A stretch of DNA of 64,000 nucleotides from Escherichia phage HMD-6. Positions 28,390-29,289 of the stretch are shown here, piece by piece; within the stretch, counting starts at the first letter, position 1; every line of letters starts with the position of its first letter. The stretch lies in the sequence record PQ505080.1. One strand, 5' to 3'. The notes beneath the pieces are model-generated. The model had not been told where the DNA came from, ran no database searches, and worked only from the letters and a program-made list of their open reading frames with translations. A program made the position numbers and the translations under genes.

Positions 28390-28418
28390 TTGACAAACTT
28401 TGCCTAACAGTGTAATAT
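28390..28418 (+). promoter_or_regulatory. sigma70 consensus-like promoter for tRNA cluster
   Basis: TTGACA (28390-28395), 17-nt spacer, TAATAT (28413-28418). Confidence 0.55.
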
Positions 28419-28476
28419 TATAAACATGGTCTCCCACCTTTTCTGGCGGCTCAGGTGTAAAAGAAAGCCACCCAGT

Positions 28477-28551
28477 GCCCTGTTAGCTTAGTGGATAAAG
28501 CAGCGGCCTTCTAAGCCGTTGACACTGGTTCGAGTCCAGTACGGGGTGCCA
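28477..28551 (+). tRNA. tRNA-Arg (anticodon UCU)
   Basis: Cloverleaf by hand: acceptor GCCCTGT/ACGGGGT (two G-U), D-stem GCTT/AAGC, anticodon stem GCGGC/GCCGT with loop CTTCTAA, T-arm ACTGG-TTCGAGT-CCAGT, encoded CCA. Confidence 0.7.
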
Positions 28552-28555
28552 AATT

Positions 28556-28642
28556 GGGGAGTTATCCCGTAGAGGTAGCGGTGTAGACTGTAAATCTATT
28601 GTCATTGCGACTCGGGTGGTTCGACTCCACCACTCCCCACCA
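28556..28642 (+). tRNA. tRNA-Tyr (anticodon GUA), type II
   Basis: Acceptor GGGGAGT/ACTCCCC, anticodon arm GTAGA-CTGTAAA-TCTAT, long variable arm, T-arm GGTGG-TTCGACT-CCACC, CCA; resembles E. coli tRNA-Tyr (GACTGTAAATC core). Confidence 0.8.
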
Positions 28643-28756
28643 AATTTATATTTTTAAATGCATAAATCATACAGATAATGACATTGATATTTATCGTCGT
28701 TTATACTAGTCACTAACTGCTCGAAAATCAGTGTCATTATCAGTGTAATTTATAAA

Positions 28757-28847
28757 GGAGGGTAGGGAGCAATGGTGCTCAAGCGGTCTTGAAAACCGTC
28801 CCGTTGAGGATGACTCGATGATGGTTCGATTCCATTACTCTCCGCCA
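28757..28847 (+). tRNA. tRNA-Ser (anticodon UGA), type II
   Basis: Acceptor GGAGGGT/ACTCTCC, anticodon arm GCGGT-CTTGAAA-ACCGT, long variable arm, T-arm GATGG-TTCGATT-CCATT, CCA. Confidence 0.75.
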
Positions 28848-28945
28848 CATTGTTGACCTTGTAATTAAGCGAAAGCCGGAAGCAGAACCGGATTATCAAA
28901 TGTTACAGTCGTCATCGCCGACTAGCCACATGGTCAACATATTGC

Positions 28946-29042
28946 GCTAGGTAAGCCCTTTGGCAAGGGCGAGGATTTTTAATCCTGAAAATAGACGAGG
29001 TAGTCGTTGAATACATAGGTGGTTCGATTCCATCACCTAGCA
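28946..29042 (+). tRNA. atypical tRNA-like gene (possible UUU anticodon, long extra arm, no encoded CCA)
   Basis: Perfect acceptor GCTAGGT/ACCTAGC, D-arm GCCC-TTTGGCAA-GGGC, T-arm GGTGG-TTCGATT-CCATC; anticodon region AGGA-TTTTTAA-TCCT (4-bp stem) and 30-nt extra region with hairpin GACGA-GGTAG-TCGTT; 97 nt total. Confidence 0.4.
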
Positions 29043-29049
29043 CCTTTTT

Positions 29050-29125
29050 GCTGATGTAGCACAATCGGTAGTGCAATTGATTTGTAATCAATAGGTTGCA
29101 GGTTCAAGTCCTGCCATCAGCACCA
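29050..29125 (+). tRNA. tRNA-Thr (anticodon UGU)
   Basis: Acceptor GCTGATG/CATCAGC, D-stem GCAC/GTGC, anticodon arm ATTGA-TTTGTAA-TCAAT, T-arm GCAGG-TTCAAGT-CCTGC, CCA. Confidence 0.8.
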
Positions 29126-29126
29126 T

Positions 29127-29201
29127 GGCCCTGTAGCTGGAAGGTTCAAGCAAGCGACTCATAATCGCCAGACGGTGGTTCAATTCCACCCAGGGCCACC
29201 A
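29127..29201 (+). tRNA. tRNA-Met or tRNA-Ile2 (anticodon CAU), elongator-type
   Basis: Acceptor GGCCCTG/CAGGGCC with paired 1-72 (not initiator-like), anticodon loop CTCATAA, T-arm GGTGG-TTCAATT-CCACC, CCA. Confidence 0.7.
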
Positions 29202-29212
29202 AATTATAAATA

Positions 29213-29289
29213 CTCCGCGTAGCTCAGCTTGGTAGAGCGCCTGATTTGGGATCAGGAGGTCGAGTGTTCGAATCACTCCGTGGAGACCA
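29213..29289 (+). tRNA. tRNA-Pro (anticodon UGG)
   Basis: Acceptor CTCCGCG/CGTGGAG with C1-G72, D-arm GCTC-AGCTTGGTA-GAGC, anticodon arm CCTGA-TTTGGGA-TCAGG, T-arm GAGTG-TTCGAAT-CACTC, CCA. Confidence 0.8.

Follow-up and report, generated by a model that had tools for sequence, protein, structure and literature searches.

The transfer RNA (tRNA) gene cluster of bacteriophage rV5 was described together with its genome, for which six tRNAs were reported: Arg (AGA), Tyr, Thr (ACA), 'Met', Pro (CCA) and a Ser species taken from ARAGORN (Kropinski et al., 2013; PMC3606486). The same paper already put forward the codon-usage argument for this tRNA set and includes an RNA ligase and an AAA_33 ATPase in its gene table; the promoter found here is listed in its Table S4 as 'PtRNA'. 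In this study, we analysed a locus of this type in Escherichia phage HMD-6 (sequence record PQ505080.1), within a stretch of 64 000 nucleotides (nt) that is referred to below as the window. A first-pass annotation made from the DNA letters alone had described a cluster of seven tRNA genes, the fourth of them 'Lys-like', and had proposed that the cluster and a nearby set of RNA-repair genes replace and repair tRNAs cleaved by the host.

Phage-encoded tRNAs have indeed been implicated in escape from tRNA-cleaving defence systems. Without their own tRNA-Tyr, T5-like phages do not escape retron-Eco7, and T1 and T7 are rescued from PrrC170 when tRNA-Lys is provided in trans (PMC11555353). Changes in its anticodon stem let the T5 tRNA-Lys evade PARIS, whose AriB cuts between positions 40 and 41 (PMC11464382), and tRNA-Lys is a frequent target of nucleases (PMC13056530).

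The 1.1-kb cluster region of the window is 99.5% identical to those of the Escherichia phages vB_EcoM-ECP32, EduardKellenberger (BASEL Bas59) and S127 BCL3 and 98% identical to those of Murica and its relatives, all of which belong to Vequintavirus, the rV5-like myoviruses. rV5 and other Vequintavirus genomes (e.g. MZ501061 and MN850578) carry the same locus at 98–99.5% identity with an identical gene order, and share with the window the PtRNA promoter and the neighbouring RNA ligase and AAA_33 kinase. The cluster itself is thus an already known, annotated rV5-type locus, with nothing new in it as such. Its CAU species, labelled Met in the rV5 paper, is of the Ile2 type in the window, and the fourth gene, unmentioned there, is treated in GenBank records as tRNA-Lys (BASEL), tRNA-OTHER, tRNA-TERM or '???(atcc)', or is not annotated. 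About 18 GenBank records of the MG0656xx series titled 'Campylobacter phage' (host Campylobacter jejuni) also carry the rV5-type cluster at approximately 98% identity; these look like mislabelled or contaminating coliphage genomes.

We consider it probable that the locus is an rV5-like tRNA operon whose main function is codon compensation, and that its fourth gene, hereafter X, is a tRNA mimic other than tRNA-Lys.

Gene content of the cluster

ARAGORN finds exactly seven tRNA-type genes at 28477–29289, all on the plus strand, in agreement with the first-pass count. They are, in order:

28477–28551, plus strand: tRNA-Arg(UCU), reading AGA/AGG, CCA encoded (ARAGORN; Rfam tRNA model, 67.8 bits)
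28556–28642, plus strand: tRNA-Tyr(GUA), long variable arm, A73, CCA encoded (ARAGORN; Rfam tRNA model, 29.9 bits against a cut-off of 29)
28757–28847, plus strand: tRNA-Ser(UGA), long variable arm, CCA encoded (ARAGORN)
28946–29044, plus strand: X, a non-canonical tRNA-like RNA, the 'Lys-like' gene (ARAGORN, '???'; Rfam tRNA model, 35.5 bits)
29050–29125, plus strand: tRNA-Thr(UGU), CCA encoded (ARAGORN; Rfam, 79.5 bits)
29127–29201, plus strand: tRNA of Ile2 type (CAU), CCA encoded (ARAGORN label Met-cat; Escherichia coli matches are tRNA-Ile)
29213–29289, plus strand: tRNA-Pro(UGG), CCA encoded (ARAGORN; Rfam, 66.4 bits)

At its gathering score the Rfam tRNA model confirms six of the seven genes as tRNA, tRNA-Ser being the exception; Arg, Thr, CAU and Pro score between 60 and 79.5 bits. 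Leaving X aside, the genes form canonical cloverleaves with a 7-base-pair (bp) acceptor stem, a 5-bp T stem with UUCRANY, an anticodon arm of 5 bp and 7 nt, U33 and a purine at position 37. The claim that most genes encode CCA holds for these six, in each of which it follows the discriminator directly; the fourth gene ends in A-CC-TTTTT instead. From these features the six products are predicted to be ordinary elongator tRNAs: Arg-UCU, Tyr-GUA, Ser-UGA, Thr-UGU, Ile2-CAU and Pro-UGG. Tight packing, which had been ascribed to the whole cluster, describes the blocks Arg–Tyr (4 nt apart) and X–Thr–Ile–Pro (5, 1 and 11 nt), but not tRNA-Ser, which has a 114-nt spacer before it and a 98-nt spacer after it.

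The CAU gene had been left as Met or Ile, and the Ile2 alternative is the better reading. All of its best full-length E. coli matches (76–82% identity) are annotated as tRNA-Ile, and a BASEL record annotates the gene as tRNA-Ile with codon ATA. The acceptor stem GGCCCUG/CAGGGCC supplies C4:G69 and C5:G68, the acceptor pairs used by TilS. The tRNA is presumably modified to lysidine and would read AUA, and the enrichment of AUA in the phage genes described below fits this assignment.

tRNA-Ser falls below the Rfam tRNA cut-off and scores 41.5 bits with the tRNA-Sec model (cut-off 47). Its homologues on P1-like and other E. coli phage-plasmids are annotated by PGAP as tRNA-Ser, and the reference record of phage P7 contains a close, unannotated homologue, at 1391–1477 of the fetched stretch L004, that reaches 46.6 bits with the same tRNA-Sec model. 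A compensatory change from G1:C72 to A1:U72 occurs in two related contigs (L011 and L050). Two foldings are possible for the gene: a 7/5 form with a 3-nt linker, and an 8/4 form in which A8 pairs with U65. Because no homologue fetched varies at A8 or U65, the two forms are inseparable, and the 8/4 'allo-tRNA' reading was set aside as indistinguishable from 7/5. The tRNA-Tyr also has a counterpart on an E. coli phage-plasmid, pGD31-F25, whose tRNA-Tyr differs at seven of 87 positions.

Codon usage and the role of the canonical tRNAs

Codon usage was compared between a phage late set of 30 plus-strand open reading frames (ORFs) located beyond 29.3 kb (9305 codons), a phage early set of 35 minus-strand ORFs (6871 codons) and a host set of 40 annotated E. 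coli K-12 genes (13 704 codons). The six highest ratios of late to host usage belong to AGA (6.8-fold), AGG (5.0-fold), CCT (3.0-fold), TCT (2.9-fold), ACA (2.7-fold) and ATA (2.7-fold), followed by AAG and ACT (both 2.4-fold); the ratio for CCA is 1.4-fold. tRNAs with U34 read U-ending codons, and between them, the five phage tRNAs Arg-UCU, Pro-UGG, Ser-UGA, Thr-UGU and CAU read all of the top six over-used codons. When 40 anticodons are ranked by their cognate codons, Arg stands first, Thr third, Ile fourth, Pro eighth, Ser tenth, Tyr 12th and Lys 15th, with a permutation p of about 0.001. Random sets of six or seven of the 40 anticodons equal the observed score with p of about 0.0005–0.006, depending on the measure.

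For five of the tRNAs, codon compensation has the best support as a function. The main role of the canonical tRNAs would be to top up E. coli minor tRNAs for A/U-ending codons over-used by this phage of 43% G+C, the codons served being AGA/AGG, AUA, ACA/ACU, CCU/CCA and UCU/UCA.

Several points weigh against this interpretation. Tyr codons are used 1.1–1.2 times as often as in the host in late genes and 1.4–1.6 times as often in early genes; because they are barely enriched in the late set, codon compensation fails to explain tRNA-Tyr. Lys-UUU is not prominent either, at its rank of 15th, and the enriched boxes GCU, GGA, GUA/GUU and CUU have no phage tRNA at all. In addition, the host genes come from one 50-kb stretch, and the phage ORFs were picked by a longest-ORF rule rather than from curated annotation. 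The first-pass annotation had set codon usage against its own proposal of tRNA replacement; usage does largely account for the set, through Arg, Thr, Ile, Pro and Ser, but not for Tyr and Lys.

Natural variants lose part of the cluster. In phage V18 a deletion has joined the first (5') half of tRNA-Tyr to the 3' portion of X, removing the first spacer, tRNA-Ser and the second spacer, and tRNA-Pro is scarred in its anticodon stem; ARAGORN finds only the Arg, Thr and CAU tRNAs. These three (Arg, Thr and Ile2) carry the anticodons ranked first, third and fourth by codon mismatch. In VB-EcoM-WM an ORF for an HNH endonuclease of 113 amino acids interrupts tRNA-Pro at the site of the V18 scar (fetched stretch L036, 1048–1389). 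Tyr, Ser, X and Pro, not intact in these natural isolates, are thus dispensable on at least some hosts. For the long-standing question of why phages have tRNA genes, the cluster, with natural variants such as V18 and VB-EcoM-WM, makes a clean test case. The altered segments of V18 lie at 1450–1548 (the fusion) and about 1700–1790 of the fetched stretch L008.

Structure and conservation of the fourth gene

X has a 7-bp acceptor stem (GCUAGGU/ACCUAGC) followed by A8 and A9, a 6-bp D stem (GCCCUU/AAGGGC) with a 4-nt loop followed by G26, an anticodon arm AGGAU-UUUUA-AUCCU followed by G44, a variable region of approximately 27 nt containing the hairpin GACGA/UCGUU, a canonical T arm, and A73 followed by CC without the final A. 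Folded alone it forms a cloverleaf (z = -3.66). Orthologues occur in five genera of the Vequintavirinae (Vequintavirus, Avunavirus, Seunavirus, Mydovirus and Henunavirus), mostly unannotated outside Vequintavirus.

An alignment of 13 distinct sequences from the five genera was scored for 21 proposed pairs (272 cells). All 272 cells form standard pairs and nine of the 21 pairs change on both sides, whereas slid controls are at most 46% paired. The changes include the elbow, where G19:C56 becomes U19:A56 in Mydovirus-type sequences, a compensatory tertiary pair. RNAalifold returns 23 pairs, nine of them compensatory, in a cloverleaf whose D stem has 6 bp and whose anticodon stem has 5 bp and closes a short loop. 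Within Vequintavirus X diverges as little as true tRNAs, with 3–4 differences per 99 nt against 17–22 per 114 nt in the first spacer. The covariation, which extends to a tertiary pair, and the low divergence argue that X is under selection; on this comparative evidence, it is an L-shaped tRNA-like RNA conserved across the Vequintavirinae, its acceptor, D and T helices and the elbow being kept by compensatory change.

These data bear directly on the view that X is a decaying, functionless tRNA pseudogene. Its incomplete CCA in the window, its non-canonical anticodon arm, its loss in V18 and its omission from many records annotated with tRNAscan would all suit decay; the unbroken pairing across the five genera, the nine compensatory pairs and a divergence as low as that of functional tRNAs make this very improbable.

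X appears to be confined to these phages. blastn found no homologue in 5426 E. coli genomes, and a conserved 22-nt motif of X had no match in 185 579 species genomes, results on which a host origin was rejected. Viral and metagenomic matches lie nearly all on Vequintavirinae-sized contigs or on short fragments. Beyond tRNA, Rfam gave nothing meaningful for X at E values up to 10, and a literature search for a described tRNA-like RNA in the Vequintavirinae found nothing.

The anticodon arm is the part that varies. It measures 15–16 nt in every genus, against the canonical 17, and 15 nt between G26 and G44 in the window. The loops are as follows:

Vequintavirus: UUUUUAA
Avunavirus: UUUAUAA
Seunavirus and Mydovirus: C[A/C/U][U/G]CCA (6 nt)
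Henunavirus-type: [C/U]AUCAAA

The innermost pair of the anticodon stem, 31:39, covaries (C–G in eight sequences, U–A in four), and the single-sequence minimum free energy (MFE) fold closes the arm further to a triloop (6-bp stem, 3-nt loop). An arm that is both shortened and variable between genera makes ordinary decoding unlikely. The discriminator is A, U or C among relatives; U73-CCA is encoded in Seunavirus, Mydovirus and Henunavirus, and the CCA is degenerate in Vequintavirus and Avunavirus. The near-invariant single-stranded stretches GAAAAUA and GAAUACAUA flank the variable hairpin. Two other proposals for this region were discarded: the four-base anticodon 'atcc' given by ARAGORN lacks credibility, its position being within the anticodon stem (3' strand), and a kissing interaction between UCCA of the anticodon loop and UGGA of the variable loop in Seunavirus is not conserved in Mydovirus.

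Identity of the fourth gene

The label 'Lys-like' would make X a tRNA-Lys(UUU). In its strongest form, this reading holds that X is a working though unorthodox tRNA-Lys in Vequintavirus (UUU, A73), charged by lysyl-tRNA synthetase through anticodon and discriminator and surviving nucleases that recognize the anticodon stem of the host tRNA-Lys, and that the Avunavirus copy has switched to UAU to read AUA. If U31–A39 opens, the loop UUUUUAA does present U33, UUU at 34–36, A37 and A38, leaving position 32 as the sole difference from CUUUUAA, the loop of E. coli tRNA-Lys; A73 is present in the window, BASEL annotates the gene as tRNA-Lys, and AAG is among the over-used codons. The Avunavirus loop and the lack of a CAU tRNA in the fetched Avunavirus cluster region would fit the switch. 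Against these points, the arm lacks two of the 17 nt expected, so that a 7-nt loop would need a 4-bp stem, and both the covariation of 31:39, which favours a 5-bp stem and 5-nt loop, and the MFE triloop speak for a smaller loop. X has A8 and U14 for the U8/A14 core and, in place of the short variable loop of E. coli tRNA-Lys, a long variable region of a kind not known from any bacterial tRNA-Lys. It encodes no complete CCA, its loop UUUUUAA is found only in Vequintavirus, neither anticodon nor A73 is conserved among close relatives, and other annotators chose OTHER, TERM or '???'. We therefore do not retain the assignment of the gene as tRNA-Lys, and regard the unorthodox version as improbable. 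The tRNA-Lys label should not be propagated in databases.

The Avunavirus orthologues (fetched stretches L006 and L007, 1501–1596) have a loop, UUUAUAA, in which the anticodon UAU would read AUA, and the 3-kb cluster region fetched for Avunavirus yielded no CAU tRNA; this may reflect an anticodon switch or coincidence.

tRNA-Sec does not fit X either: the stems are arranged 7/5 rather than as the 13-bp acceptor/T domain of bacterial tRNA-Sec (8/5), Rfam gave no tRNA-Sec match at E values up to 10, and UCA-like loops occur only in Henunavirus-type sequences, with A33. Compared with the tRNA-Sec loop, which we take to be CUUCAAA, the Henunavirus-type loop differs mainly at position 33.

The preferred identification of X as a tRNA mimic other than tRNA-Lys can be taken further, with less assurance. 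One tentative version is that X does not decode at all and serves as a decoy, sponge or dedicated substrate for an enzyme recognizing the tRNA elbow and acceptor end; a CCA-end toxin, a nucleotidyltransferase, an aminoacyl-transferase or the repair enzymes might be its partner, and the T4 stable RNAs C and D would be loosely comparable. Strong structural selection on the acceptor, D stem, T arm and elbow, with an anticodon loop free to change, is what such a role would leave behind, and the nearly invariant GAAAAUA and GAAUACAUA stretches, the U73-CCA of three genera, the restriction to Vequintavirinae and the presence of tRNA-like stable RNAs in the T4 cluster point the same way. The degenerate CCA of Vequintavirus and Avunavirus is odd for a mimic of the acceptor end, however, X bears no sequence relationship to T4 rnaC/rnaD, and neither a partner protein nor a precedent for a decoy of this kind is known in this phage group. 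More speculatively still, X could represent an undescribed Vequintavirinae family of tRNA mimics that do not decode but engage an enzyme of host defence or tRNA handling, as decoy or dedicated substrate, perhaps in concert with the ligase, kinase and phosphoesterase encoded nearby, the Vequintavirus arm having been remodelled to imitate the tRNA-Lys loop attacked by PrrC, PARIS and Schlafen. X is the one element of the cluster that deserves further work.

Structured spacers

From folding and comparative sequence evidence, the operon is predicted to carry two conserved structured spacers, one on each side of tRNA-Ser:

28643–28756, plus strand: spacer 1, a long hairpin with arms 28662–28691 and 28724–28753 (inverted repeat; MFE -26.7 kcal/mol, z = -4.59)
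28848–28945, plus strand: spacer 2, a structured element of approximately 90 nt with a closing helix (28851–28858 with 28932–28939) and a core at about 28871–28935

In contig L011 the stem of spacer 1 has undergone two compensatory double changes next to each other, and both L011 and L050 retain the fold. The hairpin may be a double-strand-specific processing site. A promoter-like ATGACA-N18-TATACT in this spacer, its ATGACA lying within the 5' arm, was rejected as a conserved feature; L011 mutates the -35 hexamer yet compensates the hairpin.

The 65-nt core of spacer 2 is 85–88% identical to lambda 44866–44934 and P7 72367–72434. In the fetched stretches these copies are found at 1201–1269 of L003 (lambda) and 1501–1568 of L004 (P7). 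The lambda copy lies in the late leader between Q/tR' and S, the P7 copy follows the unannotated tRNA-Ser homologous to that of the window, and the core is common in lambdoid viral contigs. The closing helices are unrelated in sequence between the window, lambda and P7, and the helix shows three compensatory changes within the genus. Rfam returned nothing meaningful for either spacer at E values up to 10, and nothing over the shared core in lambda or P7. Directly past the P7 core (fetched stretch L004, 1587–1702) there is a sub-threshold match to Rfam STnc100 (43 bits, cut-off 47); by eye its beginning looks like the 5' flank and the first part of the core in lambda, hinting at a second copy that has diverged.

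Promoter and transcription

The promoter reported by the first-pass annotation is present, together with a short leader:

28390–28418, plus strand: predicted sigma-70-type promoter TTGACA-N17-TAATAT, 'PtRNA' (consensus scan; rV5 Table S4)
28419–28476, plus strand: leader of 58 nt, no significant structure (z = +0.73), 1–3 differences among Vequintavirus relatives

It agrees with the consensus at 10 of 12 positions. The match alone is not statistically special, since the scan found eight promoter-like sites against 5.1 ± 2.4 in shuffled sequences. Its placement is apt, 58 nt before the first tRNA and directly past the stop codon of the upstream ORF, and in V18 it is identical except for one base of the spacer. 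Promoter use and co-transcription are inferred from the sequence. Most likely, host RNA polymerase would transcribe the cluster from 28390–28418 as a polycistronic tRNA operon at the head of a rightward block running on into the lysis, terminase and structural genes, and host tRNA-processing enzymes would cut the transcript. In a gene order shared with annotated relatives, the replication and nucleotide-metabolism genes occupy the minus strand up to about 24.5 kb, and the plus-strand block comprises the kinase, the phosphoesterase, a helix–turn–helix (HTH) regulator, small ORFs, the tRNAs, spanin, terminase and head/tail genes.

Repair enzymes and the counter-defence alternative

A set of the ligase/kinase/phosphatase type, on which the replace-and-repair proposal drew, is recognized by Pfam 3–5 kb upstream of the cluster:

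23533–24468, minus strand: Rnl1-family RNA ligase (Pfam RNA_lig_T4_1, E = 1.5e-14; annotated as RNA ligase in nomo and rV5)
24512–24979, plus strand: P-loop kinase (Pfam AAA_33, E = 1.3e-10)
24882–25541, plus strand: calcineurin-type metallophosphoesterase (Pfam Metallophos_2, E = 4.2e-7)

The kinase and phosphoesterase are candidate RNA end-healing enzymes, with a presumed action on RNA. In T4, Pnkp and Rnl1 are the phage's answer to PrrC; by analogy with them, tRNA repair by the three window enzymes is plausible, with the difference that the phosphoesterase is of calcineurin type and the phosphatase of T4 Pnkp is of HAD type.

The first-pass annotation had singled out Arg-UCU, Tyr and Lys as targets of tRNA-cleaving toxins or readers of rare codons. 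tRNA-Tyr and tRNA-Lys are documented targets of E. coli defence nucleases that phage tRNAs can bypass (PMC11555353, PMC11464382, PMC13056530) and Arg-UCU reads AGA, the most over-used codon, but the fourth gene does not qualify, not being a tRNA-Lys. A corresponding alternative is that the cluster is chiefly a counter-defence device, in which the phage tRNA-Tyr, Lys-like RNA and tRNA-Arg replace host tRNAs cut by nucleases (retron-Eco7 PtuAB, PrrC, PARIS AriB, Schlafen or colicin-type enzymes) and the ligase, kinase and phosphoesterase repair them. It would account for Tyr and the Lys-like gene, the two members that codon usage leaves unexplained, and it has precedents in the phage tRNA-Tyr and tRNA-Lys that defeat retron-Eco7, PrrC and PARIS (PMC11555353, PMC11464382). 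The stem of X (AGGA/UCCU) differs completely from that of host tRNA-Lys (UUGA/UCAA), and the Rnl1-type ligase, kinase and phosphoesterase near the cluster resemble the T4 Pnkp/Rnl1 pair deployed against PrrC. However, codon demand predicts five of the seven anticodons, and it is such anticodons that the reduced clusters keep; X forms no anticodon arm of 5 bp and 7 nt, and only one of the five genera sampled shows a Lys-like loop. Moreover, Vequintavirus phages are reported to be sensitive to Ec2ApeA, a tRNA-cleaving HEPN defence. The anticodon loops of the six canonical tRNAs, set beside what we take to be the E. coli sequences, show no obvious escape mutations save at position 32 of tRNA-Thr. 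Counter-defence as the chief function is thus doubtful. Under the preferred interpretation of codon compensation, a secondary anti-defence benefit, mainly from tRNA-Tyr and perhaps from X, is possible by analogy with those systems and is not needed to explain the set.

Other features of the window

Downstream of the cluster, a group I intron at 30809–31087 (Rfam, 81.4 bits) splits the gene for the large terminase subunit into ORFs at 30393–30821 and 31167–32258; the related phage nomo also has an endonuclease ORF between two terminase pieces. Upstream, an ORF-free segment at 26013–26098 contains four tandem units of 21–22 nt, each with the palindrome TGTCCG-N4-CGGACA. The repeats lie just downstream of an HTH-domain gene (25589–25939) and look like an operator array.

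Comparison with known systems

For rV5 and the other Vequintavirus genomes, no description of the structured spacers is known. tRNA-Ser(UGA) and the spacer 2 core occur together in P7 as well; the gene sets around the elements shared with phage-plasmids and lambda differ.

X and tRNA-Ser each have features of tRNA-Sec and allo-tRNAs. X shares the 6-bp D stem, the 4-nt loop and the long variable arm, but is 7/5 and not 8/5, 8/4 or 9/3, and a UCA anticodon is not conserved in it. In the case of tRNA-Ser, an 8-bp acceptor stem with a T stem of 4 bp is one possible drawing, and the Rfam tRNA-Sec score is slightly below the cut-off.

Like the T5-like anti-defence tRNAs, the window has a tRNA-Tyr behind a near-consensus promoter and, in X, a Lys-like loop on a foreign anticodon stem. 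In T5 the tRNAs have canonical structures and depend on a working anticodon (PMC11555353), whereas X is non-canonical with an unconserved loop.

T4, also a virulent coliphage, provides a close parallel in organization, with a polycistronic cluster of eight tRNAs, the stable RNAs C and D and the homing endonuclease gene segB. Both clusters contain additional structured RNAs that are not tRNAs, both phage genomes encode an Rnl1-type ligase elsewhere, and an ORF for a homing-type endonuclease lies inside the cluster in T4 (segB) and in some relatives of the window (VB-EcoM-WM). Homology of X or the spacers to RNAs C and D was considered and rejected, the identities of 0.45–0.53 being at background level. 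T4 has Gln, Leu and Gly tRNAs and no Tyr, unlike the window. The two sets nevertheless share Arg-UCU, Ile-CAU, Thr-UGU, Ser-UGA and Pro-UGG, and the identity between the tRNAs of the two phages (64–82%) is ordinary tRNA resemblance only. The recurrence of the same five anticodons in the unrelated T4 looks like convergence on the minor tRNAs of E. coli.

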